DNA from: Betaproteobacteria bacterium
GTDB lineage: Bacteria > Pseudomonadota > Gammaproteobacteria > Burkholderiales > JACQAP01
DNA: 64,000 nucleotides
Assembly (NCBI GenBank): GCA_016194905.1
Contig: JACQAP010000009.1
Span: 77,569-141,568 of the forward strand
Reading direction: 5' to 3'
Part shown: in pieces, positions 1,542 to 62,589 of the stretch
How the letters are laid out: each line of letters starts with the position of its first letter
How positions within the stretch are numbered: the stretch's first letter is position 1
Notes under the pieces: generated by a model
The model's input: only the letters and a program-made list of their open reading frames with translations
The model's database searches: none
Told to the model about the DNA's origin: nothing
Translations under genes and position numbers: made by a program

Positions 1542-1811
1542 GAACCACGGAGAACACGGATACCCTCGCGATAGCGTGGAGTACCCTTTTAGAGCACGGA
1601 GAAAACCTGTGAACGAAATAGGTGTTGGAAAGTGAATGCGTTGGCAGCAGTGCCCCTGGACGTTGTGTGCACCGGTGAACTGACCGATACCCACGCAAAT
1701 TCACTGCTCGCATCCCGCCTTGCCCCCCCCTTTTCCGTTTCTTTGCCTTTCCTCCGTGTCCTAAAAGGGTACTCCACGCTATCGCGAGGGTATCCGTGTT
1801 CTCCGTGGTTC
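1542..1811. repeat. Intergenic palindromic element E1: perfect 50-bp inverted repeat (1542-1591 / 1762-1811) around a 170-bp centre
   Basis: Left arm is gaaccacggagaacacggataccctcgcgatagcgtggagtaccctttta. The right arm is its exact reverse complement. Outer ends are built of CACGGAG words. It fills the gap between the MFS start and the metY stop. Confidence 0.95.
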
Positions 1812-1818
1812 ACGCCTT

Positions 1819-3105
1819 CTAAGCTTTGGACTGGGCAAGAGCCTGGTCGAGGTCCCACAGGATGTCGTTGACGTCCTCGATGCCGATCGAAAGCCGGATC
1901 ATGTCGGGTCCGACGCCGGCTTTGATCTGGTCTTCCTCGGAAAGCTGACGGTGCGTGGTCGATGCGGGATGGATCACCAGTGTCTTGGCATCGCCGACAT
2001 TGGCCAGGTGCGAGAAGAACTGCAGCCCCTCGATGAATTTCACACCGGCTTCCATGCCGCCCTTGATGCCGAAGGTCATGATCGAGCCGCTGCCCTTAGG
2101 CAGGTATTTTTGCGCGAGCGCATGGTATTGGCTGCCCGGCAGGCCCGGATAGTTCACCCAGGAAACGCGCGGGTGCTCCTGCAAGAACGTTGCGACCGCC
2201 ATCGCATTTTGGACATGGCGCTCGACGCGCACATGCAGCGTCTCCAGTCCCTGCAGCAGAATCCACGCGCTAAACGGCGACAGGACCGGACCTAGCGTGC
2301 GCATGGTTTCCATGCGGCATTTCATGGTGTAGCCGAAATCGCCGAAGGTCTCGTGGAAAATCACCCCGTGGTAGCCGCGCGAAGGCTCGGTCATCATCGG
2401 ATACTTGCCGTTGCCCCACGGGAACTTGCCCGACTCGACCACGACACCGCCCATGGTGGTGCCGTGGCCGCCGATGAACTTGGTCGCGGAATGAATGACG
2501 ATGTCGGCGCCGAATCTGATCGGCTGGCACAGGTAGGGCGACGCGAATGTATTATCGATGATCAGCGGCACGCCGGCCTCTTTGGCAATTTTTGCCACGG
2601 CCTCGATGTCGAGCACGTTGATCTGCGGGTTGCCCATGGTCTCGGCGTAGATCGCGCGCGTCTTCGGCGTGATCGCCTTGCGGAAGTTTTCCGGATCGTC
2701 CGCATTGACGAATATGGTGTGGATGCCGAACTGGCGGAAGGTCACGTCGAACTGCGAATACGTGCCGCCGTAGAGCGTACTGGACGAGACGATCTCGTCG
2801 CCTTCGCGCAGGATGGTCAGCAGAGCACACATCTGGGCGGCCTGGCCCGAAGACGCGGCCAGCGCCGCGCGCCCGCCTTCGAGCGCGGCCATGCGCTCCT
2901 CGAACACCGCGACGGTCGGATTCGAAATGCGCGAATAGACGTTGCCGAAAGTCTGAAGATTGAAGAGGCTCGCCGCATGCTCCGCGGAGTCGAACACGAA
3001 GGACGTGGTCTGGTAGATCGGTACCGCGCGCGCACCGGTGGCCGCGTCGGGAATCTGTCCCGCGTGGAGGCACAAGGTGCCGAATCCGAATTCTCTGTCT
3101 GCCAT
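1819..3105 (-). CDS. metY: O-acetylhomoserine sulfhydrylase / aminocarboxypropyltransferase (PLP-dependent)
   Basis: 428 aa. FGTLCLHAGQ, PIYQTTSF, SRISNPT and HSATKFIGGHG (PLP-lysine region) are hallmarks of Cys/Met-metabolism PLP enzymes of the MetY/Met17 type. Confidence 0.9.
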   Translation of the reverse strand: MADREFGFGTLCLHAGQIPDAATGARAVPIYQTTSFVFDSAEHAASLFNLQTFGNVYSRISNPTVAVFEERMAALEGGRAALAASSGQAAQMCALLTILREGDEIVSSSTLYGGTYSQFDVTFRQFGIHTIFVNADDPENFRKAITPKTRAIYAETMGNPQINVLDIEAVAKIAKEAGVPLIIDNTFASPYLCQPIRFGADIVIHSATKFIGGHGTTMGGVVVESGKFPWGNGKYPMMTEPSRGYHGVIFHETFGDFGYTMKCRMETMRTLGPVLSPFSAWILLQGLETLHVRVERHVQNAMAVATFLQEHPRVSWVNYPGLPGSQYHALAQKYLPKGSGSIMTFGIKGGMEAGVKFIEGLQFFSHLANVGDAKTLVIHPASTTHRQLSEEDQIKAGVGPDMIRLSIGIEDVNDILWDLDQALAQSKA

Positions 3106-3112
3106 GGTAATT

Positions 3113-3214
3113 CAGTGAATAGTGAACGGTGATCAGTGAATGGTGAAAAGCAAATCGTGCCCGGGCATCGGTCCTGGTTCCTTCCGTTCACTGTTCACCA
3201 TTTACCGTTCACTG
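3113..3214. repeat. Intergenic palindromic element E2 (GTGAAYRGT word arms)
   Basis: Left arm 3113-3150 (cagtgaatagtgaacggtgatcagtgaatggtgaaaag) and right arm 3181-3214 (cttccgttcactgttcaccatttaccgttcactg) are imperfect reverse complements. The centre holds the palindrome TGCCCGGGCA. Confidence 0.8.
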
Positions 3215-3216
3215 CT

Positions 3217-3696
3217 TCAGTAAGGTAACCACTTCGGCCGCTTGGCGGAAATGACCTTGGTGTTCACGCCGACCCAGTTGAGCCCGCCGAACAGCCGGCC
3301 GTGTTCGATCTTCACGCAGCGGTCCTGCACCACTTCCAGCCCGGCCTTACGCGCCTTCGCCGCTGCTTTTTCGTTCATCACGCCGATCTGCATCCACAAT
3401 ACCTTGGCGCCGATGGCGATGGCCCCGTCCGCGATCGGTTCGATGTCTTCGCTTTTGCGGAAGCAATCCACGATGTCGACTTTATCGGGAATGTCCTTGA
3501 GCGAGGCGTAGCACGTCTCTCCCAGGACCTCCTTGTACATAGGGTTCACCGGGATGACGCGGTAGCCGTGCTCCTGCATGTATTTTGCGGCAAAGGAACT
3601 GGGCCGGTACCAATTGGCCGACAGTCCGACCACGGCAATGGTCTTGTACTGCTTGAGGATGCGGCGCAGGGTGTTGATGTCGGTGGAGTCGCTCAT
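3217..3696 (-). CDS. CoA-binding protein (YccU-like)
   Basis: 159 aa. The KTIAVVGLS...RPS...GYRVIPVNP motif is typical of the CoA_binding_2 family. Confidence 0.85.
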   Translation of the reverse strand: MSDSTDINTLRRILKQYKTIAVVGLSANWYRPSSFAAKYMQEHGYRVIPVNPMYKEVLGETCYASLKDIPDKVDIVDCFRKSEDIEPIADGAIAIGAKVLWMQIGVMNEKAAAKARKAGLEVVQDRCVKIEHGRLFGGLNWVGVNTKVISAKRPKWLPY

Positions 3697-3762
3697 GCGT
3701 GATTTGTGCTGAAAGAAAGCGTTGCGCGGAAAGCCGGCAGTTTATCACCGGCGCCGGATACT

Positions 3763-4797
3763 TTAGCCCGCCTTCAGTTTCGCCTGCCGTTGCTCTTTCG
3801 GCAGCTTGCCGATCTCCTTGACCGCCGCATAGAAGCGCCTGAAGTCGCCGCCGTTCTCCGCCAGCACCCGGCGGAAGCCGGGTACCAGCTCGGAATAAGT
3901 CGCAACCGGTACGAGATGGGCGTTGTTCAGCTCCTCGGCAAAGAAACGGTCGTAGCCGGCATAGCCTCCCCAGGAAGATCTCAGGGTCAGGTACTCCGCT
4001 TTCATGGCGGCGAAGGTTTCGGCTTTCTTCTGGCGCTTGTCCGTGTCCGTCGCTGCACTCGCGTACAGCGTCCTGAGGCTGTCGCGGTACTTCATCACCA
4101 GGTCGATGAAGGCGCCTTTGCGTCGTTCGTATAATTCGAAGGCGGCACGTTTCGCGGGATCGCCATCGCGCGCCAGCCAGCGGTCGACGCCCTCCAGTTC
4201 CACGGCGACGGCAAACGACTCGTTGAACACGGTGTCTCCGGGAACGTAAACAACCTGATGCGCGAGCTCGTGAAAGATCAACCGCGCGAGTTCGCCATCG
4301 GGATAGCGCATGACGGTATTGAGCACGGGATCGTCGAACCAGCCCAGCGTGGAATAAGCCGGAATGCCGGTGACGAAGACGTCCAGGCCTTTGCGCCGCA
4401 ATTCCTCACCGAACTGCTCGGCACGAGCCTGGCTGAAATAACCGCGGTAGCCGACGCAACCGGCAAACGGGAAGCACCACTCCTTCGGCGCAACCGAAAG
4501 CTCGCCGGCCGCAAATACATTCCAGACCACGAACGGACGTTCCAGGTCGGCGTATTTCCGGTAGCTGCCGTTATCCGGCAGTGCCAGTTCGCCGGAAGCG
4601 AAATTCCGCACGCGCAGCACCAGCGACAGGCGTTCGCGCACCTGCGGCGGCGTGTGCGTGTCGTCGATGACCTGCGCGATCGAACGGCTGCGATTCCAGA
4701 TCTGCATCTGCCCTTCGACGGCCTGGTAGTAGTAGCCGATGTTTGTGCAACCGCAGAGTCCGCTGACCAGCGCGAGTATGAAAGCTAATCGGGTCAT
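3763..4797 (-). CDS. Putative zinc aminopeptidase lipoprotein (COG4324-type)
   Basis: 344 aa with a lipobox (LVSGLCGC) at the N-terminus and HELAH (HExxH) in IFHELAHQVVY. The overall pattern matches 'predicted aminopeptidase' family proteins. Confidence 0.75.
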   Translation of the reverse strand: MTRLAFILALVSGLCGCTNIGYYYQAVEGQMQIWNRSRSIAQVIDDTHTPPQVRERLSLVLRVRNFASGELALPDNGSYRKYADLERPFVVWNVFAAGELSVAPKEWCFPFAGCVGYRGYFSQARAEQFGEELRRKGLDVFVTGIPAYSTLGWFDDPVLNTVMRYPDGELARLIFHELAHQVVYVPGDTVFNESFAVAVELEGVDRWLARDGDPAKRAAFELYERRKGAFIDLVMKYRDSLRTLYASAATDTDKRQKKAETFAAMKAEYLTLRSSWGGYAGYDRFFAEELNNAHLVPVATYSELVPGFRRVLAENGGDFRRFYAAVKEIGKLPKEQRQAKLKAG

Positions 4798-5426
4798 TGG
4801 CCGAACCTGCCGTTCTTCAGAAACGCGCAGGCGGCACGCGCGACCGCCGGCGAAACCAGCATCGCGCTATGGCTGGTATGCAGCACGATCGAATCGGCCG
4901 CTCCCGGCACATGGGTTTCGTCCAGAATCACGACTCCGTCGTTCGGCCTGGGCAGGTGCGCGAACAGCCTGCCGAGACCGATGGAGACATCTCCCGCGAT
5001 CGCGCCGAGCTCGACGCCATCCGGGATTGGCGGCCGGGGCTGACGCAACCAGTCCTGGAGCGTGCGCCCGAGCAATCCGCGACTCGCCGCGAATCGCGCC
5101 ATACCCTGCGCGGCGACGCTGTTTGCATACGGACTGCCGACCAGCACCACTCGATGCGCCTTGACCTGCGGATGATTGTGCAACATGGTCATGATCAGCA
5201 GACCGCCGAGGCTGTGACCCACCAGATTCAATGGCGCGCCGGACTTTTCGCAGACCGAGGCCAGTCGTCGCGCGTTCTCGCGCAGGCCCCGCCGCACGGA
5301 TTGATAGCCATGCCTGGTCACGGCAAAGCCGCAGCGCTCCAGTCGCCGGGCGAGCGGCAGCATGGCCAGGCCGTTCATCCACAAACCGTGGACGAGCACG
5401 ATGCGCTCGCCATCAGCCGGCATCAT
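4794..5426 (-). CDS. Alpha/beta-fold hydrolase (esterase/lipase-like)
   Basis: 210 aa with VLVHG (oxyanion region) and a GHSLGG nucleophile elbow. A 4-bp overlap with the downstream gene suggests an operon. Confidence 0.8.
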   Translation of the reverse strand: MMPADGERIVLVHGLWMNGLAMLPLARRLERCGFAVTRHGYQSVRRGLRENARRLASVCEKSGAPLNLVGHSLGGLLIMTMLHNHPQVKAHRVVLVGSPYANSVAAQGMARFAASRGLLGRTLQDWLRQPRPPIPDGVELGAIAGDVSIGLGRLFAHLPRPNDGVVILDETHVPGAADSIVLHTSHSAMLVSPAVARAACAFLKNGRFGQ

Positions 5427-6336
5427 CCTCGGCTTTCAGGATCTCCAATCCGCGCTTGAGTGCAGTCTGGTATCTGGCTTTGGTCCTGGCGATTTTTTCC
5501 GCCGGCCAGTCGTAGAAGCCTTTGCCGGTTTTCATGCCGATCTCGCCGGCCTTCACCTTCGCCGCGAGTTTCGCGGCCGGTTTTGCGTCGTTGCACAGAT
5601 CCGGAAAAACGGTACTGGAGGCCAGGTAGTTCACGTCGAGTCCCGACATCTCCTTCTGCAGGATCGGTCCGGCGGCGACATAACGAAAACCGAAGCCGTA
5701 ACGCACCGCGATGTCGACATCCTCCGGCGTGGCGATGCCACGTTCGATCAGCGACCACGCTTCGCGCATCAGCGCATGCTGCATGCGGTTGGCGAGGAAG
5801 CCGGGAATGTCCTTCGCCACCATCACCGGCTTGCGACGCAGGCGTTGCATCAACTCGAACACCGATTGCGCCACGGCGGGATCGGTGGCGTCCGACCGCA
5901 CCACTTCCACCAGCGGCACCATGTGCGCCGGCATGAAGAAATGCAGGCCGAGCATGCGGCGCGCGCTCTCAAGGCCGCCGGCAATCCGGCTGATCGGAAA
6001 GCTGGAGGAATTGCTGGTCAGCGCAATGTCGGCGGGCGCGAGCGCTTCGAGTTCGGCAAAGATGCGCTGCTTGAGCGGAAGGTCTTCGTTCACGGACTCG
6101 ACCACGATGCCGGCGTGCTGCCACGGCACATCGCGCGGCGCATCGTGCAGCGAGACATCGGGTCGAACGCCGCCGAGTTCCGCCACCGATCTGGCAAAGC
6201 GTTCCCGCAGCGAATCTCGGGTCTTCCCCGGCCGCTGCACGATATCCACACCCATGCCGCCGGCCGCGAAAATCGCCGCCACGTCGGCGCCCATCGTTCC
6301 GCCGCCAATGATCACGGCTCGTTTTTGCGGCAACAC
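5413..6336 (-). CDS. 3-hydroxyacyl-CoA / 3-hydroxybutyryl-CoA dehydrogenase family protein
   Basis: 307 aa with an N-terminal Rossmann motif (IIGGGTMG), plus VESVNEDLPLKQ and PGFLANR motifs of the 3HCDH N/C domains. Confidence 0.85.
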   Translation of the reverse strand: MLPQKRAVIIGGGTMGADVAAIFAAGGMGVDIVQRPGKTRDSLRERFARSVAELGGVRPDVSLHDAPRDVPWQHAGIVVESVNEDLPLKQRIFAELEALAPADIALTSNSSSFPISRIAGGLESARRMLGLHFFMPAHMVPLVEVVRSDATDPAVAQSVFELMQRLRRKPVMVAKDIPGFLANRMQHALMREAWSLIERGIATPEDVDIAVRYGFGFRYVAAGPILQKEMSGLDVNYLASSTVFPDLCNDAKPAAKLAAKVKAGEIGMKTGKGFYDWPAEKIARTKARYQTALKRGLEILKAEDDAG

Positions 6337-6421
6337 GCTTTTTCTCCCGACTCAAGCCCCGGACGCCGCATTATAGAAGGTGTGGGAGTGCTAGACTTCG
6401 CGCCTTGTTCCGCAGACCGCC

Positions 6422-7159
6422 ATGCCCTTTCCGCCAGAAACCCTGATTGCCGTGCCGCTGATCGGGCTGCTTGCCTACATCATCCTCGGCATTTCCGGGT
6501 TCGGTTCGGCCCTGGTCACCATTCCGCTGCTGGTGCACTTTCTGCCGCTGCAGTCCGTGGTACCGCTCGTCGTAATGGTGGATTTTCTGGCCACCGTCTC
6601 CAATGGCGTGAGGTTCCGCGAGCATGTCGAAGTGGCCGAATTGAAACTGGTTATCCCGGCGGTCATCGCCGGCATCCTGTCCGGCGTGACGCTGCTGGCC
6701 ACGTTGCCGAAGCACGCGGCACTCCTGATGCTCGGCGGCTTCGTTACGGGTTACGGCGTCTACCGTCTGTTGATCAGGCCTTCGAACAAACCGGTGTCGC
6801 GCTGGTGGGGGATACCTACCGGCCTCGTCGGCGGGCTGATCGGTGGATTGTTCGGCGTGGGCGGGCCGATTTACGCGACTTACATGGCAGCGCGCATCCA
6901 TGACCCGGCGAAAATGCGCGCCACGCTTTCGGCGGTGTTCTCTTTCAGCACCGGGCTGCGACTGACGGTCTATCTACTCTCCGGCCTGTTGTTGCAGTCC
7001 GAAGTCTGGTGGGCGTTCCTGTTGTTGCTGCCGTCGATGCCAGTCGGCCTCGCCATCGGCCACCGCCTGCACGCGAAACTCACTCGCGAGCAGGTCGGCG
7101 GTTTCATCAGCGTTCTTCTGGTAGTCAGCGGGCTTTCGCTGTTATTGAGGGCGATCTAA
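6422..7159 (+). CDS. TauE/SafE-family anion exporter (membrane protein)
   Basis: 245 aa with 7-8 hydrophobic helices and a duplicated G-rich motif (GISGFGSALV / GGLFGVGGPI), as in TauE/SafE. Confidence 0.8.
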   Translation: MPFPPETLIAVPLIGLLAYIILGISGFGSALVTIPLLVHFLPLQSVVPLVVMVDFLATVSNGVRFREHVEVAELKLVIPAVIAGILSGVTLLATLPKHAALLMLGGFVTGYGVYRLLIRPSNKPVSRWWGIPTGLVGGLIGGLFGVGGPIYATYMAARIHDPAKMRATLSAVFSFSTGLRLTVYLLSGLLLQSEVWWAFLLLLPSMPVGLAIGHRLHAKLTREQVGGFISVLLVVSGLSLLLRAI

Positions 7160-7176
7160 ACTCCGAGCCTCTCCGG

Positions 7177-7374
7177 CTACACCGGGAGCCGTACTTTCCC
7201 TTTCTTAGTTATCCGAACGGGTGCCTTGCCGCCGGCCACGATTGCCCACAGTTCCGCCGCGCTGGTAAACGGGCGGCGGACGCCGGATTCGACGACCTCC
7301 ACCACCCCGTTCACCCGCGTGCCTTTTTTTGCGGGACCGAGCACCCGAACGACGAAGCTTCGCAATTCGCGCAC
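7177..7374 (-). CDS. Small conserved protein, family S (paralog of 16270..16458)
   Basis: 65 aa (GTG start, uncertain). SFVVRV...GVVEVVESGVRRPFTSAAELWAIVAGG...KKGKV aligns with STFIVRL...GVVEDVRSGRRIPFASAEELWRAVSGG...AKGKV of the second copy. Confidence 0.7.
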   Translation of the reverse strand: MRELRSFVVRVLGPAKKGTRVNGVVEVVESGVRRPFTSAAELWAIVAGGKAPVRITKKGKVRLPV

Positions 7375-7405
7375 GGGAAGGCCTCGTGGAACGGATGAAC
7401 TGGGA

Positions 7406-7888
7406 CTAACGCAATTTCCAGCTTCCCCATTCGCGAGTACACACCGCGATCTGACCCGCGGGCGGCGGCGCGTCGGTGACGGGCATCCAGTTGCTGGCGA
7501 CCGCGATGCCGTTGTACTTGCCGGTACCGCCGACAGCGCGAAAGCTACCGCTCTCCTGATTTTTGCGGTTGAACAGGCCGAATATCTTGTCGCCCGCCGG
7601 ATCCGTGTATTCGCAGGACCCCATCTCGTTGTACTCGCCGTTGACCAGAGTCCAGGTACCGTTGCATACGGATGTCGTGTTGTGAAAGAGCCCGCTTGCG
7701 ACGGGACTTACGCCATTGACGGTGTAGGACCCACCCATGGCATCTTTTGAATGCATGATCATGTGGTGCGCTCCCACGAAGCATTCGTTCTGATCGTACT
7801 TGCCTTCCTTCGCCAGATCGGCGCCGACGGCGCTTGCGCCGATGATGCAAAGCGATACTCCAATAAGCGATGCTAGTTTGCGGTTCAT
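7406..7888 (-). CDS. Secreted 4-Cys protein with GTGK[YF]xG motif, family D (paralog D1)
   Basis: ATG at 7888 is preceded by AGGAGAGGG. It has a signal peptide (LIGVSLCIIGASAVGA). ADLAKEGKYD..CF, C.G.W, G.CE.TDP.GDK.FG and GGTGKYNG are shared with 15764..16258. Confidence 0.8.
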   Translation of the reverse strand: MNRKLASLIGVSLCIIGASAVGADLAKEGKYDQNECFVGAHHMIMHSKDAMGGSYTVNGVSPVASGLFHNTTSVCNGTWTLVNGEYNEMGSCEYTDPAGDKIFGLFNRKNQESGSFRAVGGTGKYNGIAVASNWMPVTDAPPPAGQIAVCTREWGSWKLR

Positions 7889-8022
7889 GATTTCCCTCTC
7901 CTGTTTCATTGACGGTTGAACGATCGCAGCCGGGGCTTTCCTCCGGCGCCCATGGCGGAAACCGGGGGCTTTCCGAAATACCCTTCTGTTCTCGGCCGCT
8001 GGAGAGGTTGCGGCGATACAGG

Positions 8023-8059
8023 GTACGGATAAGTTACCGAATCGAGATCCGGTTACGGT
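8023..8059 (-). promoter_or_regulatory. Candidate SARP-type direct repeats between regulator R1 and its cargo
   Basis: GTACGGAT (8023), GTTACCGA (8033) and GTTACGGT (8052). The first two are 11 bp apart. They lie 22-58 bp after the R1 stop and about 135-165 bp upstream of the D1 start. Confidence 0.4.
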
Positions 8060-8080
8060 CTTGCAATCTGCCCGCCGCCG

Positions 8081-11000
8081 CTACACCTGCTGCACGGAGC
8101 GGAACAGGGCCTCGCTTTCGCGGGAGGGAGTAATGCCAAGCGTTACGGAGAGAATCTGGCGCAGGCGACGGTATACGGTCATGGCATCGGCATGGCGGCC
8201 GCGCTCGATGTGGCAGCGTATGAGGCCCTGGTAGAATTCCTCGGCCAGATCATCGGCGTCAATCCCGCGTTGGTACAACGAGGCCGCGGCGTCCAAGTCT
8301 CCCGCTCGTTCGAGCCTAACCCCTTCTCGTTCCGCATGACGGATGAACTTGCCACGCAGCCGCTCACGAGGGGACAACGCCCAGGACGACTCGCGCTCCT
8401 CGGGCAGAAACTGTCCTTGATAGAGCCTCTCGATCCGACTGGAGTCCACTCCCGCATCGGCGGCCTGCTCGAACGCGTTCGCGTCGATCCAGACCTCGTG
8501 GGGATTCACGCTGACCCGACCATTCTCCACCTGCACCGTATTCGGATTGCGGAGCAGCTTGCGCAAGCGATGCAGCGCAATCTTGCAGGCTTCCCGAGCA
8601 GCAGCACCTTCCTCGTCCGGCCAAAGCGCGTCCATGAGCTTCGTTTCCGGAACATCCACTCCTCCGAAGGCTATGATGGCCTTAAGGAGGGTAATCGGTT
8701 TTCTGGGTACCTTGTGAGAAAAGGACAGCACCTTGTCCTCCAAAAGAATCTTGAAGTGGCCAAGCGTGTAAATTCGGACCCGCCAAGGCCATTGGTCTGC
8801 TTGATTGGAGGGCGCCGGCAGCGAAAGGCGGCGTATCAGCACATTGACGTAGCCTGGCTCGAGCCCCAACTCCAGAGCCTCCGCACACAATCTTGGCGCC
8901 CACAATCTTATGAATCGCAAGGGCCAGTCACAGCCGGAGATGCGCTGCAACTCGAAGCCGCGCCGCAAATGTTCAGGCACAGATGTGCGATTGCCTTCTT
9001 CGAGTCCCAGGAATGCTTCGGAAAAATGAACCTCAGCCTTGAGCCAAAGCGAGCGTGACGTGTCAGCAAGATTCCTTGCCTCCGATATCCAGCGTCGCGC
9101 GTCGGCAAAGTCTCGCAGCACCGTCAAGCTCAATGCGAGCTGAATACGCGACACGCAACGCAGGAAATGCGTACCCGCCTCGTCGAAACTATTCACCGCG
9201 CGCTTGGCCGACACATATGCCCCCGCCGGGTCACCGTCGAACGCGGCAACCCACGCTTTGATCGATTCCGCGATGGCCTCGTTGTAAGGACGGCCTGACA
9301 TCTCCGTTTCATTGAGACGATTCGACCAGCGACGTGCGGCCTCTGCATTTCCCACACCGAACTCGACATGAGCGCCAACAATCGCCGCAAAGCGCGATAC
9401 TGCTGGCAGGCCGTCGTCCCGGCCGATGCGCTCGGCTTCCGAGACCGCCGCACGGCTTTTCTTTTCGTCGCCCGCCACCAGTTCGAAGAGGGAAATCATG
9501 AACCAACCCAAACCTGCACTCATTGGCGTGACTTCTGGATGTCCGAGGAGCTGCTCGAGCAAAGGCGCCGCTTTGCGTGCGATTTCGAGTGGTCCTGTGC
9601 GGGTGCCGTAGGCAACGAGGTACGCCGCCGCCAAGGTTCGCAGGTTGATGCTGCCGCCGATTTGTACCAGATCGAAGACTCGATCGGTGCAGGCATCCAG
9701 TGCGGGATCATCGGGTTTGCAGTACGACAACGCAATGAGGAGGGCAGAACGTGCGCGCAGTTCCGCTTCGGCATTCTCGAAGACCGTCACTTGTTCCAAT
9801 AGCACCTTCAGCGCCCCGATCCACTGATCCATCGCACGGAAATTGGTGTATTCGAATATGTAGGTCTGAATCACTCCCGCTGCGGCCTGGACTTGACACA
9901 TGAAGTCGGCCTGACGAGTCGCCGCTTCATGGCTCGCCTCCAGCGCTACCCTCGCCCCCCTAGCATCGACCGGCGTCTTCGCAGTGCCATACCAATGCAG
10001 CAACCAGCAATGGTTCTCGACCACTTCCTTCGGAAGAGCATCAATCCATTCCACGACGACCCGCCAGCGACCTTGCGCGATAAGTCTCGAGGCCTGGCGA
10101 AGAATGACCGCGATCGCGGCGGGTACATCGCCGCAGCGAAGGTAAAGCGGAAACGCCTCCTCGGAGTGGTCGTTCGCGTCGAGGATCTGCGCTGACCGTC
10201 GGGTAATGTCGGCATCCTGGTCTGGACTGAATGTCAGTTGTGCCCGATGCTGGAGGAATGCCTGAAAGAGTGCATGAAACTGATATACGCGCTGTTCGGT
10301 TGAACGCCGATCCGTGAACAGATGACGCCGGTGCAGATCTTCCAGTAGTAGCGAAGCCGTCGTGGTCCCGGTGAGATCCTCCGCCGTTCTTGCAGTCATT
10401 CCTGGCAGATAACTGAGGCGCAAAAGCTCGTCCTGACTTTGCGGGTGCATCTGATCGAAAAGCTGGCCGGCAAAATAGTTGAACACTTCGCGCAGAGAAT
10501 CAGACACGGTAGTACTTGGGAGATCGCCGCCGCGACGCCATCGCGCAAGCAGCAGAACGAGTCCGGCTGTCCAGCCCCCGCTTTTCTCATGAAGTTCGGC
10601 GATCTGAGAGTCGCTAAGCTGGATCCGCCCGGCACCGACAGCGCGTGCCTCCTCAAAGGTGAGCTTCAGATCCTCCCAATCGACAAACGCGACGTTCTCG
10701 TTGGCAATTAGCCGCGCGTAGCAGTCCGGCGGATCGCGCCGACTGACGGCGATCAGCATGATGCCCGGCGACACCTCTTCCACCGCTTGCGCGATCAGTT
10801 GGTGGAACTTCTGCTCCGGCCCAACTTCCTGATAGTTGTCCAGAACCACTGCCGCACCTTCCGGCAGCCGGCCAAACAATTCGCGGAAAAACCTGCGTGA
10901 GAACCCCTCGGCGTCCTGAAGATATTCGGGTGTGAGCAACGGCAGTGGCCGCTGCCCTTTGCGGCCAAAAGGTTTCGCCGCTTCCCCGAGGTAGTAGAAG

Positions 11001-11236
11001 AAGGTGGGGAGGTCTGCATCGCCGGGATCGACCTGGTACCAAATGCCCTTGATAACACGAGCATCGAGCCAACTGGCTACCAGCGTGGTCTTGCCTGCTC
11101 CTGGCGGGCCGACCACGCAGATCGCGGATTTATGCTCGCGGGCTTCGTTGAGCAGCACAAACAACCGCTCGCGCGCCACTGCCTTGTAAAGGCGCGGACG
11201 AGTCAGTTTGGCAAGCTGTGGTGGCTTCTTCGGCAT
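8081..11236 (-). CDS. MalT-type STAND P-loop ATPase with C-terminal SARP module (winged helix + BTAD), paralog R1
   Basis: 1051 aa. MalT-like N-terminus (LAKLTRPRLY...VVGPPGAGKTTL, Walker-B-like VVLDNYQEV) and a long helical middle. C-terminus is WPWRVRIYTLGHFKILLEDKVL...LWPDEEG...HRLRKLL (OmpR-type wHTH) plus DDLAEEFYQGLIRCH...YRRLRQILSVTLGITPSRESEALF (BTAD). Confidence 0.85.
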   Translation of the reverse strand: MPKKPPQLAKLTRPRLYKAVARERLFVLLNEAREHKSAICVVGPPGAGKTTLVASWLDARVIKGIWYQVDPGDADLPTFFYYLGEAAKPFGRKGQRPLPLLTPEYLQDAEGFSRRFFRELFGRLPEGAAVVLDNYQEVGPEQKFHQLIAQAVEEVSPGIMLIAVSRRDPPDCYARLIANENVAFVDWEDLKLTFEEARAVGAGRIQLSDSQIAELHEKSGGWTAGLVLLLARWRRGGDLPSTTVSDSLREVFNYFAGQLFDQMHPQSQDELLRLSYLPGMTARTAEDLTGTTTASLLLEDLHRRHLFTDRRSTEQRVYQFHALFQAFLQHRAQLTFSPDQDADITRRSAQILDANDHSEEAFPLYLRCGDVPAAIAVILRQASRLIAQGRWRVVVEWIDALPKEVVENHCWLLHWYGTAKTPVDARGARVALEASHEAATRQADFMCQVQAAAGVIQTYIFEYTNFRAMDQWIGALKVLLEQVTVFENAEAELRARSALLIALSYCKPDDPALDACTDRVFDLVQIGGSINLRTLAAAYLVAYGTRTGPLEIARKAAPLLEQLLGHPEVTPMSAGLGWFMISLFELVAGDEKKSRAAVSEAERIGRDDGLPAVSRFAAIVGAHVEFGVGNAEAARRWSNRLNETEMSGRPYNEAIAESIKAWVAAFDGDPAGAYVSAKRAVNSFDEAGTHFLRCVSRIQLALSLTVLRDFADARRWISEARNLADTSRSLWLKAEVHFSEAFLGLEEGNRTSVPEHLRRGFELQRISGCDWPLRFIRLWAPRLCAEALELGLEPGYVNVLIRRLSLPAPSNQADQWPWRVRIYTLGHFKILLEDKVLSFSHKVPRKPITLLKAIIAFGGVDVPETKLMDALWPDEEGAAAREACKIALHRLRKLLRNPNTVQVENGRVSVNPHEVWIDANAFEQAADAGVDSSRIERLYQGQFLPEERESSWALSPRERLRGKFIRHAEREGVRLERAGDLDAAASLYQRGIDADDLAEEFYQGLIRCHIERGRHADAMTVYRRLRQILSVTLGITPSRESEALFRSVQQV

Positions 11237-12105: not shown

Positions 12106-12262
12106 CTTACCGTTCACTGTTCACCTTTCGCCATTTATGGTCGAATACCCGTGCGAATACCCTACGTGCGTAGCACGTCGGAGTACTCTTCTAGTACCCT
12201 TTTAGACCGGTTATGGTCGCAGACCGGTATCCCCTTGTGGGAATCCCCTTGCGGGGCACCGC
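12106..12262. repeat. Intergenic element E3 (word arm + conserved core shared with E4 and E1)
   Basis: 12107-12131 carries ttaccgttcactgttcacc words. 12132-12163 is identical to 13519-13550 (32 nt). It is followed by a hairpin, GGAGTAC..CCTTTTAG and TTATGGTCGnAGACCGGTATCCCC, as in E4. Confidence 0.85.
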
Positions 12263-12264
12263 CC

Positions 12265-13503: not shown

Positions 13504-13518
13504 GCTTGTCCCTTCACG

Positions 13519-13690
13519 CATTTATGGTCGAATACCCGTGCGAATACCCTGGCGAAGCCCGGAGTACCCTTTTAGCTAGGAGTTATGGTCGAAGACCGGT
13601 ATCCCCTGGGAATCCTTCGGAATCCCTTGGGAACCCTGTGGGCGCATTTCACACCTTTACCGTTCGCTGTTTACCGTTCACCATTCGCCG
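13519..13690. repeat. Intergenic element E4 (conserved core + word arm)
   Basis: 13519-13550 is identical to 12132-12163. GGAGTACCCTTTTAG is at 13561-13575. ttaccgttcgctgtttaccgttcaccattcgcc words are at 13655-13688. Confidence 0.85.
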
Positions 13691-13693
13691 CCG

Positions 13694-25210: not shown

Positions 25211-25321
25211 GGCTATCTCCGCATTCGGAAGCCGCATTGTTCGCCACGCAAGGCAGCGCCGTCCAATACATTGCGCACGGCGGATTGATAGCTGCCGGGA
25301 ATTGAACGGGTCAACCCGTTA

Positions 25322-25494
25322 ACCGCAAAGGCGCAAAGGAAACGCGAAGGAAAGCAATGCGAGAAAAGGACTGAAGGGAATTGATCATCACTGCCAATTG
25401 CCAATGTTGACGCTACATGTGCAACCGACTTTTGGCCCCGACCCATTACCTGGATTTTCTTTGCGTTCCCTTTGCGCCTTCGCGTCTTTGCGGT
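25322..25494. repeat. Intergenic palindromic element E5 (CGCAAAGG/CGCGAAGG word arms)
   Basis: Left arm 25322-25357 (accgcaaaggcgcaaaggaaacgcgaaggaaagcaa). Right arm 25457-25494 (ttctttgcgttccctttgcgccttcgcgtctttgcggt). They are imperfect reverse complements with permuted words. Confidence 0.8.
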
Positions 25495-25514
25495 GAAGAC
25501 CTTTCGGCGCAGGT

Positions 25515-27948: not shown

Positions 27949-27974
27949 CGAGAACCTCTACAAAGATAAACGTT

Positions 27975-28148
27975 GAACCACGGAGGACACGGAGGGCACG
28001 GAGAAAAACAAGAATGGAAAAATGAATTTCGCGAAAGGCTCATGGCATATGGGAGAAAGTATATTTCGACGTTGCAGCCATTTTCTCCGGTCTTCATTTC
28101 CGCGCCTGTTCTTGCACTTCTCCGCGCCCTCCGTGTCCTCCGTGGTTC
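27975..28148. repeat. Intergenic palindromic element E6 (CACGGAG word arms)
   Basis: gaaccacggaggacacggagggc (27975-27997) is the exact reverse complement of 28126-28148, and pairing extends imperfectly inward. The word type is the same as at the E1 outer ends. Confidence 0.9.
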
Positions 28149-28154
28149 ACGAAT

Positions 28155-30460: not shown

Positions 30461-30632
30461 CAACGCAGAGGCGCAGAGGACGCAAAGGACGCGGAGGAAA
30501 ATCAAACTCGTGATCGAATAGGGGCTGCACCGAACATGTCTGCAAATAGTTGCAGTGTTTGGCAAGGGATACACAAGATTCACCTGAATTTAATTCCGCG
30601 TATTTCTCTGCGCCCTCTGCGCCTCTGCGTTG
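30461..30632. repeat. Intergenic palindromic element E7 (CGCAGAGG word arms)
   Basis: caacgcagaggcgcagagg (30461-30479) is the exact reverse complement of 30614-30632. Arms continue with CGCAAAGG/GCGGAGG words. There is an inner hairpin CTGCAA-atag-TTGCAG at 30540-30555. Confidence 0.9.
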
Positions 30633-32005: not shown

Positions 32006-33391
32006 ATGACCCTTGCAGCCAAAGAAATTCAAACCGCGATCGACGAGCTGAAAGCCGTCTTCGGCGACCGCCTTTCCACCAACACCGGCGTTCGCGACCA
32101 CCACAGCAAAGACGAGTCCTGGCATCACCCGCATCGTCCCGACGCCGTGGTATTCCCGAATACCACTGAGGAGGTGTCGCAGATCGTGCGCATCTGCGCC
32201 AGGCACCAGACGCCTGTGGTGGCCTACGGTACCGGCACCTCGCTGGAAGGCAACGTGATTCCGCACCATGGCGGTGTGGTCGTCGACCTCGCCAACATGA
32301 ACAAGGTCTTGCGAACCAGCGCGGAAGATCTCGACGTCACGGCGCAGGCGCGCGTGACCCGCAAGGAGTTGAACGCGTTCATCCGCGACCAGGGCCTGTT
32401 CTTCCCGATCGATCCGGGCGCGGACGCTTCCCTCGGCGGCATGGCCGCGACGCGCGCGTCGGGAACCAATGCCGTGCGCTACGGCACGATGCGCGAGAAC
32501 GTACTTGCGCTGACCGTGGTGCTCGCCGACGGGCGCATCATCCGCACCTCGCGACGGGCGCGGAAATCGTCCGCGGGTTACGACCTCACCCGGCTTTTCG
32601 TCGGCTCGGAAGGCACGCTCGGCATCATCACCGAAGTCACGTTGCGCCTGTACGGCATACCTGAGGCAATGGCGGCCGCGGTGTGCTCATTCGACCGCAT
32701 CGAAGGCGCGGTCAACACCGTAATCCAGACCATCCAACTCGGCATTCCGGTGGCACGCATCGAGCTGCTCGACGACGTGCAGATGGATTCGCTGAACAAG
32801 TTCTCGAAGCTGAACTATCCGGTCAAGGACACGCTGTTCCTCGAGTTCCACGGTACCGAGAACGGGGTCAAGGAACAGGCGGAGATGGTGCAATCCATCG
32901 CCGCTGAATACGGTGGCGGCGAATTCAAATGGGCGACCAAGACCGAAGACCGCAACGCGCTGTGGACGGCGCGCCACGACGTGACCTATGCCAACAAGGC
33001 GCTGCGTCCCGGCTGCGAAATCTGGGCCACCGATGTCTGCGTACCAATCTCGAAGCTGGCCGAGTGCATCATGGAAACCAAGAAGGACATGAAAAGCAGC
33101 TTTCTGATCGCGCCGCTGGTCGGCCATGTCGGCGACGGCAACTTCCACCTCGGCTTCCTGATCAACCGCGACGATCCGAAGGAACTCGAAGAAGCCGAGC
33201 GCCTGAACGATCGTCTGGTCATGCGCGCGCTGTCGATGGACGGCACCTGCACCGGCGAGCACGGCATTGGCCTGGGCAAGATGAAGTTCCTCATCGCGGA
33301 GCATGGCGACGCCGTCAGCGTAATGCGTCAGATCAAGAAGGCGCTCGATCCGCAGAATATTCTCAATCCAGGGAAAATCTTCACTCTCTAG
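32006..33391 (+). CDS. FAD-linked oxidase (D-lactate dehydrogenase/GlcD-like)
   Basis: 461 aa with an FAD_binding_4 pattern (PVVAYGTGTSLEGN) and a C-terminal FAD-oxidase domain ending in LDPQNILNPGKIF. Confidence 0.85.
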   Translation: MTLAAKEIQTAIDELKAVFGDRLSTNTGVRDHHSKDESWHHPHRPDAVVFPNTTEEVSQIVRICARHQTPVVAYGTGTSLEGNVIPHHGGVVVDLANMNKVLRTSAEDLDVTAQARVTRKELNAFIRDQGLFFPIDPGADASLGGMAATRASGTNAVRYGTMRENVLALTVVLADGRIIRTSRRARKSSAGYDLTRLFVGSEGTLGIITEVTLRLYGIPEAMAAAVCSFDRIEGAVNTVIQTIQLGIPVARIELLDDVQMDSLNKFSKLNYPVKDTLFLEFHGTENGVKEQAEMVQSIAAEYGGGEFKWATKTEDRNALWTARHDVTYANKALRPGCEIWATDVCVPISKLAECIMETKKDMKSSFLIAPLVGHVGDGNFHLGFLINRDDPKELEEAERLNDRLVMRALSMDGTCTGEHGIGLGKMKFLIAEHGDAVSVMRQIKKALDPQNILNPGKIFTL

Positions 33392-33393
33392 GT

Positions 33394-33525
33394 GAGGCGA
33401 GAGGCATGAGGGGTGAGGGGAAAAGGCTTAAAGATTAACCTCTCGCCCTGATCCCTGGCTCTTAAGCTCTTGCGAATCGTCAATCCGCCCTGCTCTTCCG
33501 CCAATCGCCTCACGCCTCTCGCCTC
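33394..33525. repeat. Intergenic palindromic element E8 (GAGGCGAGAGG/GTGAGG word arms)
   Basis: gaggcgagaggcatgagg (33394-33411) versus cctcacgcctctcgcctc (33508-33525) gives 17 of 18 complementary positions. Confidence 0.8.
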
Positions 33526-33530
33526 GCCCA

Positions 33531-33878
33531 GTGACAACGATCTACGGCATCAAAACCTGCGACACCATGAAGAAGGCATTCGCCTGGCTGGACGATCATG
33601 GCGTTCATTACAACTTCCACGACTACAAGGCGGCGGGCATCGACGTCGCGCGCCTGAAAGCTTGGTCGAAGCAGGCCGGTTGGGAAGTTCTTCTGAATAC
33701 GCGCGGCACCACCTGGCGCAAGCTCTCGCCGACACAACAGGCGAATCTCGACGAGAACAAGGCGCTGAAGCTGATGAGCGAGAACCCGAGCTTGATCAAG
33801 CGTCCGGTGATGGAAAACGGCGAGGCTTTGCTGGTAGGTTTCACTCCCGAGCGCTATACCGAAGCATTCAAGCGCTAA
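33531..33878 (+). CDS. ArsC/Spx-family reductase-like protein (YffB type)
   Basis: 115 aa with a GTG start. IYGIKTCDTMKKA...LLNTRGTTWRKL are typical of YffB/ArsC-family proteins. Confidence 0.8.
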   Translation: MTTIYGIKTCDTMKKAFAWLDDHGVHYNFHDYKAAGIDVARLKAWSKQAGWEVLLNTRGTTWRKLSPTQQANLDENKALKLMSENPSLIKRPVMENGEALLVGFTPERYTEAFKR

Positions 33879-58098: not shown

Positions 58099-58104
58099 AT
58101 AGTC

Positions 58105-59727: not shown

Positions 59728-59750
59728 TAGTTATTCGTAGCGACTTCGAA

Positions 59751-59779
59751 CCCCGCCCGAGTGACGGGGTTTTTATTTT
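59751..59779 (+). terminator. Rho-independent terminator
   Basis: CCCCG-cccgagtga-CGGGG, extendable to AACCCCG/CGGGGTT, is followed by TTTTTATTTT, 24 nt after the stop at 59727. Confidence 0.8.
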
Positions 59780-59850
59780 CGGCGACAAAGCGCTGGGCCG
59801 AGCGATGCACCCGCACGCGGCAGCGGCGGAGAGATTCTCCCAAAATCCGC

Positions 59851-60855: not shown

Positions 60856-60988
60856 AGTAGAGGGTCAATTCCGGCGTCCCGCGCAAGAAAATCGGACGCC
60901 TGAGCATTCAACCGGAATACGAGGGCGGGAATACTAGCATCCGACCACCAACGCAACAACGACGCCATTTCATTCAAGGAGTACAACA

Positions 60989-61822
60989 ATGTCCGCAGTC
61001 ATTTCCACTTCCCCACCCGCCATTGATCTCGCCGCCGTCAAGACCCGCCAGCAAGCCGCCTGGTCCACGGGCAACTATGCCGTCGTGGGCACCACTCTGC
61101 AGATCGTCGGCGAGAACCTTTGCGAAGCGCTCGACCTGCGCGCAGGCAGCCGCGTGCTCGACGTCGCCGCCGGCAACGGCAATGCCACGCTTGCGGCCGC
61201 GCGCCGCTGGTGCGACGTGACCTCCACCGATTATGTGTCCTCGCTGCTCGAGTCCGGGCGAGCGCGGGCGCAGGCCGAAGGCCACACGATCCAGTTCCAG
61301 GAAGCCGACGCCGAGAACCTGCCCTTCCCCGACGCGTCGTTCGACGCGGTGATGTCCACCTTCGGCGTGATGTTCACCCCGAACCAGGACAAGGCGGCGA
61401 GCGAGCTCGCGCGCGTCTGCGAGCCCGGCGGCCGGATCGGCCTGGCGAACTGGACTCCCGAGAGCTTCATCGGACAACTGTTCAAAACGATCGGCAAGTA
61501 CATCCCGCCCGCGCCGGGCGTCAAATCCCCGGCACTGTGGGGCACGAAGGCAAGGCTCGGGGAGCTCTTCGGCAAAACCGCGAACGAGATCCGCACGACC
61601 AGCCGCCAGTTCACCTTCCGCTATCGCTCGCCGGCACACTGGATCGAAGTGTTCCGCACCTACTACGGCCCGATGAACAAGACTTTCGGCGCGCTCGATG
61701 CCGGGAAGCAGGCTGCCTTCACCCGGGACTTGCAGGCTCTCATGGAGCGCGACAACCGCTCGGGCGACGGCACGCTGGTGCTGCCGAGCGAGTACCTCGA
61801 AGTCGTGATCGAGCGGAAGTAA
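60989..61822 (+). CDS. Class I SAM-dependent methyltransferase
   Basis: 277 aa. VLDVAAGNGNATLAAA (motif I), FPDASFDAV.S.FG.MF, GGRIGLANW. Confidence 0.85.
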   Translation: MSAVISTSPPAIDLAAVKTRQQAAWSTGNYAVVGTTLQIVGENLCEALDLRAGSRVLDVAAGNGNATLAAARRWCDVTSTDYVSSLLESGRARAQAEGHTIQFQEADAENLPFPDASFDAVMSTFGVMFTPNQDKAASELARVCEPGGRIGLANWTPESFIGQLFKTIGKYIPPAPGVKSPALWGTKARLGELFGKTANEIRTTSRQFTFRYRSPAHWIEVFRTYYGPMNKTFGALDAGKQAAFTRDLQALMERDNRSGDGTLVLPSEYLEVVIERK

Positions 61823-61895
61823 TGGCTTCCGGCAAAAATCAATCGGCCGGACAGGCCTGCATCGGCAGGACGAGTGCAAACCAACGAGGTGCATC

Positions 61896-62330
61896 ATGAG
61901 CAACGGAAAATCTTACAAAGGCAGTTGCTTTTGCGGCGCGGTTCAGTTCACGGTCAGTGGCGAGCCGGCCGCAATGGGTTATTGCCATTGCGAGTCGTGT
62001 CGAAGCTGGTCGGCGGGACCTGTCAACGCCTTCACTCTATGGAAACCCGAAGCGGTGCAGATCACGCGGGGAGCGGACAACATCGGCACTTACAACAAGA
62101 CGCCGCGCAGTTATCGCAAATGGTGCAAGACGTGTGGAGGCCACCTCTTCACCGAGCATCCCGGCTGGGCACTCACCGACGTGTATGCGGCGGCTATTCC
62201 TGACTTTCCTTATCAAGCCGGCATCCATGTCAACTATCAGGAGACGAAGCTGCGCATCAAGGACGGGTTGCCGAAGATGAAAGACGTCCCGAAGGAAATG
62301 GGGGGCTCGGGTGTCAGCATGGCGGAATAA
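61896..62330 (+). CDS. GFA/CENP-V-family protein (glutathione-dependent formaldehyde-activating enzyme fold)
   Basis: 144 aa. Cys-rich zinc pattern: GSCFCGAV, YCHCESCR, WCKTCGGHLF. Confidence 0.85.
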   Translation: MSNGKSYKGSCFCGAVQFTVSGEPAAMGYCHCESCRSWSAGPVNAFTLWKPEAVQITRGADNIGTYNKTPRSYRKWCKTCGGHLFTEHPGWALTDVYAAAIPDFPYQAGIHVNYQETKLRIKDGLPKMKDVPKEMGGSGVSMAE

Positions 62331-62379
62331 CACGGCGGGCTCTTCAAGCACCATCGCCGGCGGCGGTCGCCGCATGATG

Positions 62380-62410
62380 ACGACGTCGCCTTTTTCGGCG
62401 ACGTCGTTTG
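62380..62410 (+). terminator. Candidate intrinsic terminator after the GFA gene
   Basis: ACGACGTCGCC-tttttc-GGCGACGTCGT (11-bp stem) is followed by only TTTG. Confidence 0.45.
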
Positions 62411-62483
62411 TCATCGGCATTTCCCCGGCGAACCGCTGCTTTTCCACCGAGGAGCGTTCTGCACGACAAATGCTGGTAGATGC

Positions 62484-62589
62484 CGTGACGGCGTGACGGT
62501 CGTGACGGCGCGATAGTTCGGTGGCGAACGCCTGAGTTCTGAAGCGGGAGGACTCGACCTCGCGGCGTCACGACGTCACGACCGTCACG
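62484..62589. repeat. Intergenic palindromic element E10 (GTGACGG word arms)
   Basis: Left arm is cgtgacggcgtgacggtcgtgacggcg (62484-62510). Right arm is cgcggcgtcacgacgtcacgaccgtcacg (62561-62589). The centre is 50 bp. Confidence 0.85.

Follow-up and report, generated by a model that had tools for sequence, protein, structure and literature searches.

Palindromic intergenic elements with tandem-word arms in a betaproteobacterial genome are probably gene-less members of a superfamily of small selfish cassettes

A 64,000-nt stretch of contig JACQAP010000009.1, from assembly GCA_016194905.1 of a Betaproteobacteria bacterium (hereafter the window), contains nine intergenic loci made of short words repeated in tandem: seven palindromes, in which one array of words faces its own reverse complement across a central loop, and two single arms. 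We conclude that these nine loci probably belong, as gene-less forms that are either non-autonomous or decayed, to a superfamily of small selfish cassettes. Full-length relatives, which a first-pass annotation made from the sequence alone had missed, carry between such arms a gene for either a GxxExxY protein or a four-helix-bundle protein.

When an inverted-repeat finder and Tandem Repeats Finder were run on the window, the seven palindromes and two single arms that had been pointed out in that annotation were all recovered (Table 1). Elements E1, E28, E25, E30, E33, E3 and E62 were the top matches of the inverted-repeat finder, and the word period in their arms was 7-9 nt (7 in E3 and E33; 8-9 in E1, E25, E28, E30 and E62). 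They form one family with a shared architecture, as had been proposed. Perfect pairing had been put at 19-50 nt; long runs of this kind were found in E1, E28 and E30 (longest run 52, 24 and 19 nt, respectively), and not in E3, E25, E33 and E62, whose perfect runs of 10-16 nt lie within longer imperfect stems. The arms of E1 are 65 nt long and 95% complementary, those of E28 41 nt long and 90% complementary. Folding of either strand gave one long hairpin per element (z from -4.5 to -19), with a minimum free energy (MFE) of -178 kcal/mol and a z of -19 for E1. Using a finder of our own (inverted repeats of at least 16 nt, loops of 20-300 nt), we detected 8 inverted repeats in the window, whereas 40 dinucleotide-preserving shuffles of it gave 0.4 on average and never more than 3; at least 20 matched bases were present in four of the window repeats and in no repeat of any of the 40 shuffles.

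Copies with an open reading frame (ORF) were reached through long-range inverted repeats with loops of 321-4000 nt, most of which turned out to be arms of neighbouring elements. At locus L003 (15358-15840), TGAACC-(CACGGAGRR)x3-ATGCAAC-ATG is followed by 125 codons, a stop, 34 nt and (YYCTCCGTG)x3-GGTTCA, and the encoded 125-aa product is a GxxExxY protein (TIGR04256, E = 2e-40; Pfam PDDEXK_3). The last word of the 5' arm, GGAGGA, occupies the place of a Shine-Dalgarno (SD) sequence, 6-10 nt before the ATG of the GxxExxY gene. The same layout was seen with CGCRGAGGA words at L082, L092 and L220 and with CACGGAG words at L210, L212, L214 and L219, while in a Caulobacterales metagenome-assembled genome (MAG; L221) a GxxExxY gene with CACGGAG words is adjoined by an ORF-less element. 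For the genes at L003, L082, L092, L210, L212, L219, L220 and L221, the E-value of the TIGR04256 match is about 1e-40. At L216, the gene lies between complete ORF-less elements, not within one. Decay was caught half-way at L021 (4541-4813), a palindrome whose centre consists of the first ~40 codons of a GxxExxY gene. The GxxExxY proteins form two clades (65-84% identity within, 54-63% between), and these clades match the two word types. From the first base of TGAACC onwards, L210 and L211 are 100% identical over 482 bp, and their left flanks are unrelated. In the window, the sub-terminal sequence of E28 (GGAGAAGTGCAAG ... GTTTTTCTCCGTG) is similar to the untranslated regions of GxxExxY-bearing elements. 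We also considered E28 as an orthologue of the ORF-bearing L003 element and rejected this, the neighbouring hydrolases being only 22% identical and just the sub-terminal sequences being alignable. As a separate observation, L003 contains at 12718-14470 two 72-nt arms (words plus module 1, an insert described below; 96% complementary) separated by 1.6 kb in which an 88-aa ORF and a gene with a Bro-N domain lie; the same ends may have mobilised all of this as one larger composite, or the arms may simply belong to two neighbouring elements.

Comparison of GxxExxY homologues showed that D67 and K79 are invariant and E77 nearly so, and the AlphaFold model (predicted local distance difference test score 94) has a PD-(D/E)XK fold. 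Its best neighbours in the PDB, all weak, are PD-(D/E)XK nucleases (Cas4 SSO0001, a lambda-exonuclease-like enzyme, DrdV, NucC and EcoRV); a PDB sequence search with the GxxExxY profile returned nothing significant and no solved close homologue. The function of PDDEXK_3 was given as "Unknown" by Steczkiewicz et al. 2012 (PMC3424549).

The other type of gene was found at L118 (1828-2192) and its orthologues L222-L226, where CGTGAATRY arms surround a four-helix-bundle gene (TIGR02436 / PF05635) that decays between the arms, by an internal deletion in L118 and by a frameshift in L222. Both types recur in finished genomes of cultured bacteria. Among the GxxExxY cases, which were taken from PLSDB records, inverted CRCNRAGGA words surround the gene in four genera: Gemmatirosa kalamazoonensis has complete GAACC-(CGCAGAGGA)n palindromes on both sides of it, Sphingomonas parapaucimobilis has it between fabD and fabG with CGCGAAGG words, Bacteroides finegoldii has it beside radA within TTCACC-(CACAGAGGA) ... 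GGTGAA, and Bernardetia has it with CACAGAG words. Inverted tandem 7-8-mers bracket four-helix-bundle genes in Nostoc punctiforme (GGGTGTR), N. edaphicum (TAGGGAG), Calothrix, Azospirillum lipoferum, Gemmatirosa, Picosynechococcus and Riemerella; the Nostoc arms are heptamers that resemble STRR, the short tandem repeats of heterocystous cyanobacteria. Some four-helix-bundle cassettes, complete with their word arrays, were also seen inside operons, namely CRISPR-Cas operons (cas6-cas4 and cas10-cmr3) and nrdB-nrdA, in Pseudanabaena pPg_01 (L239), a Picosynechococcus plasmid (L240) and N. edaphicum pNe_5 (L235).

The words of the arms had been read as specific to each locus. We took a census of 866 kb, namely the window and 120 loci from ~20 MAGs of one uncultured betaproteobacterial (Burkholderiales) clade that is known solely from soil, glacier-forefield and peat MAGs and to which MetY homologues and a DNA-pattern scan assign the window; the loci were gathered by a pattern drawn from these elements, and densities are biased upwards. 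This sample held 172 palindromes of this kind (median length 185 bp, median loop 120 nt), and 108 of them were built from variants of the 9-mer CRCNRAGGA (CACGGAGGA, CGCAGAGGA, CACGAAGGA, CACAGAGGA, CGCAAAGGA and CGCCAAGGA). The remaining ones fell into recurrent classes matching E3 (GTGAAYR, GGTGATT, CGTGAATRY), E33 (GAGGGNN, AGGSNCG) and E62 (CGTGACGN); the word class of E62 recurs for instance at L022 (5809-5937), and the orthologue of E25 at L003 (169-364) bears the same word as E25 itself. The words are therefore subfamily markers that recur genome-wide and across genomes, not locus-specific signatures. On both strands the purine-rich arm comes 5' (105 versus 3 cases). Going by crude gene calls, divergent gaps hold about half as many elements per kb as the other gaps (0.52 versus 1.04-1.19). 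About a quarter of the inter-gene gaps are occupied in the sampled contigs of the clade.

The centres, described earlier as unique, turned out in part to be common to several copies in one genome. MAG CAYNFN contains five whole-element copies (arms and centre) with 70-80% identity and unrelated flanks, three of them on one 8-kb contig, and MAG CAYODB contains three such copies with 83-89% identity and likewise unrelated flanks; the ends of these paralogues read ACC-ACGGAGGA ... TCCTCCGT-GGT. Since arms and centre are shared within one genome and flanks are not, these copies make up a dispersed family resembling MITEs (miniature inverted-repeat transposable elements). Across all centres, a k-mer search found no common motif besides the arms and module 1.

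We then compared both gaps flanking metY in 80 metagenomic loci encoding MetY relatives. Where MetY is 86-97% identical, a palindrome with this layout occurs in both gaps nearly without exception, and its word and centre vary by strain: CACGGAG, CGCRGAGG, CACGAAGG, CACAGAGG and CACCAAG types were found downstream of metY, and GTGAAYR, GGTGATT, CGTGAATRY (~20 copies in L140), GTGAGGN and CACAGAGG types upstream. The downstream gap is empty (26 nt) in L141 and L142, only the right arm is left in L137, and L006 has a gap of 39 nt at metY, so that word swaps, an empty site and a half element all separate strains at these fixed gaps. In genera whose MetY is at most 82% identical, the gaps are short, plain and element-free. 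The copy number of words is unequal between arms and between strains, which points to slippage.

The arms are themselves hosts to an insert of 31-37 nt, which we call module 1 and which consists of ATACCCT, a short hairpin with compensatory stem variants, and GGAGTACCCTTTT. In E1, it interrupts a word of the left arm at CACGG^AG and is found again at the mirror position of the right arm, whereas the L003 and L002 orthologues of E1 have it in one arm only. Among 151 copies (L002-L127), CRCNR precedes it in 139 and AG follows it in 150, which places the insertion bond within the 9-mer word at CRCNR^AGGA. Module 1 is present or absent between homologous elements, and it is also nested in the loops of its own copies at GCGA^AG or GCGT^AG (L038, L076); it resembles a hyper-parasite that lives on the palindromes. 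The small dispersed repeats (SDRs) of Nostoc punctiforme are reportedly also tiny hairpin-containing inserts in tandem short repeats and in their own copies, and module 1 differs from them in sequence, in phylum and in having a defined target, CRCNR^AG in a 9-mer word. Two further small arm inserts were noticed: TTCTTTTCTATACCCCCTTGAGGGGTA, a perfect small hairpin (L046:7262-7300, L042:6753-6790 and the downstream gap of L131), and CTCACCACGCGCCGCAAGCGGCACAAGTGTTCCCTTGAGG (L014:4175-4235 and the upstream gaps of L130 and L131).

Table 1. Palindromic elements, single arms and module 1 copies in the window (positions are those of the 64,000-nt stretch)
Feature	Position	Strand	Description
E1	1541..1812	.	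palindrome, TGAACC...GGTTCA ends, CACGGAG(R)A words
Module 1	1560..1590	+	in a word of the E1 left arm
Module 1	1763..1793	-	E1 right arm
E3	3113..3214	.	palindrome, GTGAAYR heptamers; whole gap from stop of CoA-binding gene to metY start
Single arm	12107..12131	.	TTCACYR heptamers
Module 1	13544..13573	+	third window copy
Single arm	13655..13688	.	TTCACYR / TTTACCG heptamers
E25	25319..25497	.	palindrome, CGCAAAGG / CGCGAAGG words, TTAACC...GGTGAA ends
E28	27974..28149	.	palindrome, TGAACC ends, CACGGAGRR words
E30	30461..30632	.	palindrome, CGCAGAGG words, CCCAAC...GTTGAGG ends
E33	33385..33534	.	palindrome, GAGGNNN heptamers
E62	62484..62590	.	palindrome, CGTGACGG octamers

In the reading that we propose, a full-length unit of ~0.45-0.5 kb comprises 2-5 tandem G/A-rich words of 7-9 nt, a small ORF and the reverse-complement array. 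The ORF encodes one of two proteins, the 125-aa GxxExxY PD-(D/E)XK nuclease or a protein with a four-helix bundle as found in 23S rRNA intervening sequences (IVSs) and Avd. Where the gene is GxxExxY, the 5' arm would provide the ribosome-binding site with its last word; if the 5' arm must supply this site, the purine-rich arm has to come first, which would explain the 105:3 polarity. The cassettes lie in operon spacers, mostly just past a stop codon and co-oriented with the host genes, and internal deletion of the ORF would leave the 100-290-bp palindromes of the window. The tandem words may be reiterated binding sites for the cassette protein, as suggested by the word type tracking the protein lineage and by the conservation of words across phyla, and their copy number would drift via replication slippage. 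New copies would arise by nuclease-dependent transposition or homing, and ORF-less copies would be either mobilised in trans or fossils. By analogy with 23S rRNA IVSs, the arms may pair in the transcript to form a long stem that RNase III could cut, and it would then be tolerable for an element to insert within an operon or, like a classical IVS, within rRNA.

Several findings weigh against the selfish-cassette interpretation. An ORF or its remnant was detected by six-frame profile search in only 4 of the 282 palindromes of the betaproteobacterial sample, and we found no partner gene for the heptamer classes of E3, E33 and E62. That the window elements descend from ORF-bearing copies we infer from their shared arms, and for E28 also from its sub-terminal sequence. 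No target-site duplication was seen around 18 TGAACC-type copies, whose logo showed only occasional extended symmetry, and the metY-gap comparison gave no clean empty/filled pair at nucleotide resolution. The one case of a 100% identical element in two contexts, at L210 and L211, is no more than suggestive, L211 being a short Logan contig that may be chimeric at the repeat. Distant GxxExxY homologues (Fusobacteria, Prevotella, Persicobacter) are accompanied by direct or other repeats instead of inverted ones, and in Pseudanabaena and Oscillatoria the arrays on both sides of the four-helix-bundle gene have the same orientation. There is also a weak signal at the RNA level, since mismatches read in sense orientation are more often G:U than A:C (59 versus 37, p = 0.03); a sense-strand MFE advantage was inconsistent across the window elements. 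The upward bias of the census densities has to be added to this list.

Alternatively, the palindromes could be non-mobile hairpins for RNA processing or stability that evolved locally in polycistronic mRNAs, with words multiplied by slippage and pairing kept under selection, and GxxExxY and four-helix-bundle genes would be separate selfish genes that prefer such hairpins as insertion sites. This explanation, which we consider unlikely, accords with the excess of G:U mismatches, the presence of elements at the same gaps across strains, their scarcity in divergent gaps, the expansion of arrays in one arm only (L003, L140) and the gene of L216 lying between complete elements instead of inside one. 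It is harder to reconcile with whole-element paralogues on unrelated flanks in one genome, with word and end sequences whose conservation across four phyla is limited to places that have the gene, with truncated ORFs that lie exactly between the arms, with an SD sequence that is the last word of the arm and with a covariation term of the family alignment that is near zero.

Mobility of another kind was considered as well. The palindromes could be a population of repetitive extragenic palindromic (REP) sequences, arranged as bacterial interspersed mosaic elements or REP doublets forming hairpins (REPINs) and mobilised by a REP-associated tyrosine transposase (RAYT, an IS200-like Y1 transposase) encoded elsewhere in the genome. 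They are indeed intergenic, palindromic, high-copy and clustered or nested, and a gene flanked by its own repeats, as in L216 and Gemmatirosa, mirrors the RAYT/REPIN picture (PMC3116915); however, the arms are tandem non-palindromic 7-9-mers instead of 20-40-nt REP hairpins and lack a GTAG or CGTC tag, the gene between the arms encodes a PD-(D/E)XK nuclease (GxxExxY, TIGR04256) instead of a Y1 transposase, and no RAYT turned up in the 1.3 Mb examined, in which no dedicated RAYT search was made, so that we regard this origin as very unlikely. Even less probable are integron attC-like sites or other targets of site-specific recombination, which also combine a conserved architecture with variable sequence: the ends ACCCAAC...GTTGGGT of a subset do fit the RYYYAAC / GTTRRRY core sites, but such core-like ends are confined to the CCCAAC subfamily and TGAACC or TCACC is the commonest kind of end, the elements are flanked on both strands by housekeeping genes in synteny, neither a cassette array nor intI was found in the sequence examined, and attC sites are not made of tandem words. 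Finally, assemblies often break at the elements, L001 for example ending inside E1, which would fit an assembly artefact; against this or mere chance, which we give next to no credence, stand the shuffles (mean 0.4 versus 8 observed) and the occurrence of the same structures in independent assemblies from JGI, ENA, NCBI and Logan as well as in cultured strains with finished genomes.

The selfish-cassette interpretation was also held against classes of elements that are already known. The palindromes are no CRISPR arrays, their periods being 7-9 nt and spacers being lacking, and no plain intrinsic terminators, the window loops being 40-140 nt long with no T-run after them, both as the first-pass annotation had stated; true terminators occur elsewhere in the window, e.g. 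at 59750-59790. That annotation had named REP or bacterial interspersed mosaic elements, MITEs and RNase III-type stems as the nearest analogies, and our comparisons support MITEs/REPINs and RNase III stems in this role. With REPIN/RAYT systems and the MITEs Correia, ERIC and NEMIS (PMC3116915), the palindromes share that they are short, non-autonomous, hairpin-forming intergenic repeats with nested or clustered insertions, and that several "flavours" per genome each have their own repeat-flanked enzyme gene. They differ in having a minimal PD-(D/E)XK nuclease in place of a Y1 or DDE transposase, and arrays of 7-9-nt words in place of a REP hairpin or a unique terminal inverted repeat. As in classical MITEs, we found terminal inverted repeats, lengths below 500 bp, no coding capacity and multiple copies, but a target-site duplication is missing and the product of the parent-like element is a PD-(D/E)XK nuclease in place of a known transposase.

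Among rRNA elements, 23S rRNA IVSs have a terminal stem of ~28 bp and a loop that may hold an S23p ORF, and their excision by RNase III has been demonstrated; they are known from Coxiella, Leptospira and Salmonella (PMC4990558). The likeness extends to terminal inverted repeats, an ORF of the same family (TIGR02436 / PF05635) in relatives, ORF decay, a presumed selfish character and a place within a transcribed unit; a long stem together with a four-helix-bundle ORF was found in L118, L222, Nostoc, Azospirillum and Riemerella, the window copies being ORF-less. Unlike IVSs, which sit in helix 25 or 45 of 23S rRNA, all copies reported here lie between protein genes, have tandem-word arms and are mostly ORF-less, and their main partner gene is GxxExxY. 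To our knowledge, no IVS with tandem-word arms has been reported.

Heptamers and other short tandem repeats of bacterial intergenic DNA, including STRR (since 1990), GGGAATC and TAACTGA, have been listed for decades with neither an origin nor a mechanism assigned to them. Contrary to the earlier statement that this combination of features could not be matched to a described family, we found counterparts in the convergent heptamers of Xanthomonas (PMC4692102), the start-codon arrays of Beggiatoaceae (PMC4679880) and the cyanobacterial STRR. In Xanthomonas, 70-75 convergent pairs of GGGAATC arrays can form stem-loops and have a mean distance of 28 nt to the upstream ORF (Rehm et al. 2015, PMC4692102), and these arrays and the GGGGAYT arrays of Nostoc were described as G-quadruplex-forming, geneless and of one word per genome (PMC4692102). 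The heptamers of these arrays are 89-93% intergenic (PMC4692102) and, as in our elements, stand near the end of an upstream ORF and mostly between co-oriented genes; in our elements, by contrast, many word classes coexist and full-length copies bear an ORF. Four-helix-bundle genes of Nostoc were found bracketed by such heptamers. In the window, E3 and E33 likewise consist of intergenic head-to-tail 7-nt arrays near an ORF. The TAACTGA heptamer arrays of Beggiatoaceae, Cyanobacteria and Bacteroidetes resemble the present elements in abutting start codons, replacing the SD sequence, breaking assemblies and having a patchy distribution among phyla that suggests horizontal transfer; they differ in being almost always direct (169 direct sets versus one indirect) and in that neither a palindromic partner arm nor an ORF-bearing form is described for them (PMC4679880).

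Our broader suggestion, which we put forward tentatively and judge to be less likely than not, is that a single class of mobile cassettes, so far unrecognised and spread throughout the bacteria, has GxxExxY and four-helix-bundle (S23p/Avd-like) genes as its coding cores and inverted tandem-word arrays as its ends. STRR, the Xanthomonas GGGAATC pairs, possibly the TAACTGA arrays, the classical 23S rRNA IVSs and the present palindromes would be full, decayed or orphaned forms of this class, on which a 31-37-nt hyper-parasite would live at one fixed bond of a 9-mer. In the open-access literature, we found no link between GxxExxY or four-helix-bundle genes and tandem-word arms; an earlier description elsewhere is possible. 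In genome annotation, few uncharacterised small genes are as common as GxxExxY and "four helix bundle protein". If the bracketing across phyla holds, the heptamer-repeat puzzle and the puzzle of these genes would have a single, testable explanation. It would also provide a new enzyme-repeat pair as a candidate for DNA or RNA recognition, and account both for the elements in about a quarter of the sampled gaps of a widespread soil betaproteobacterial clade and for the breaks of its metagenome assemblies at these sites. As to such breaks, Logan contig L001, which is identical to window positions 1777-10650, stops 36 nt into E1, and many GxxExxY homologues lie on contigs of 0.5-2 kb; the elements systematically fragment short-read assemblies of the clade.

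The window elements are embedded among ordinary metabolic genes, among them those for MetY, a transporter of the major facilitator superfamily (MFS), a CoA-binding protein, an epoxide hydrolase, an aminotransferase, PanE, an enolase-superfamily enzyme, an FAD oxidase and ArsC. Six-frame profile search of the centres gave no ORF and no ORF remnant, and the window contains no GxxExxY or four-helix-bundle gene and, as noted at first pass, no transposase. It has no rRNA and no Rfam match at gathering score, and a tRNA scan was negative; a MIR408 match on the E28 hairpin in an E-value threshold scan of Rfam (E = 9e-5) was discarded as spurious. An element commonly starts 3-10 nt past a stop codon. 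E1 lies in the gap from the metY stop to the MFS start, E33 overlaps both the upstream gene, at its stop codon, and the ArsC-family gene, at its GTG start, and only 3-8 nt separate E3 and E33 from a stop or start codon, the metY ATG standing 8 nt beyond E3 without an SD sequence.

More generally, genes right behind a pyrimidine-rich arm lack an SD sequence (metY, start 3105; MFS, start 1528; the ArsC-family gene, GTG start 33531), as they do at the metY gaps of most strains compared, and the arrays reach to within 3-12 nt of the start codon of such downstream genes. The upstream stop and the downstream start each stand at one foot of the stem, and ribosomes could conceivably pass the hairpin by termination-reinitiation. 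An SD sequence is likewise lacking behind TAACTGA arrays (MacGregor 2015). The window also has a lone, partnerless pyrimidine-rich arm of ACCTTYN heptamers (TTTACCTTTGACCTTCCACCTTCTC) at 33895-33925, upstream of an ORF at 34016, which was absent from the first-pass annotation.

A composite repeat of ~130 nt occupies both gaps around a periplasmic-binding-protein gene (12265-13521), at 12132-12260 and 13519-13650, where it adjoins the single heptamer arms; a paralogue of that gene follows at 13694-15058. The repeat contains TTATGGTCGAATACCC twice, module 1 and GGGAATCC / GGTATCCCC words reminiscent of the Xanthomonas GGGAATC repeat. Its two copies share a stretch of 32 nt that is 100% identical, versus only 77% identity between the two genes, and the copy at 13519 takes in the start codon of the downstream gene. 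Beside this region, a gene on the + strand (11530-12078) encodes a nucleotidyltransferase of the AbiEii / DUF6036 type, a toxin family of type IV toxin-antitoxin systems. Three paralogous SARP/LuxR-like regulators of ~1050 aa, each combining an AAA_16 ATPase with TPR repeats and a BTAD domain, are encoded within 16 kb, all on the minus strand (8081-11236, 16532-19711 and 20592-23783). An 83-bp direct repeat with 90% identity was found at 47784-47866, where it is the 3' end of the gene at 46834-47892, and at 49775-49857, just past the stop of the gene at 48060-49724, this second copy probably being a leftover gene fragment.

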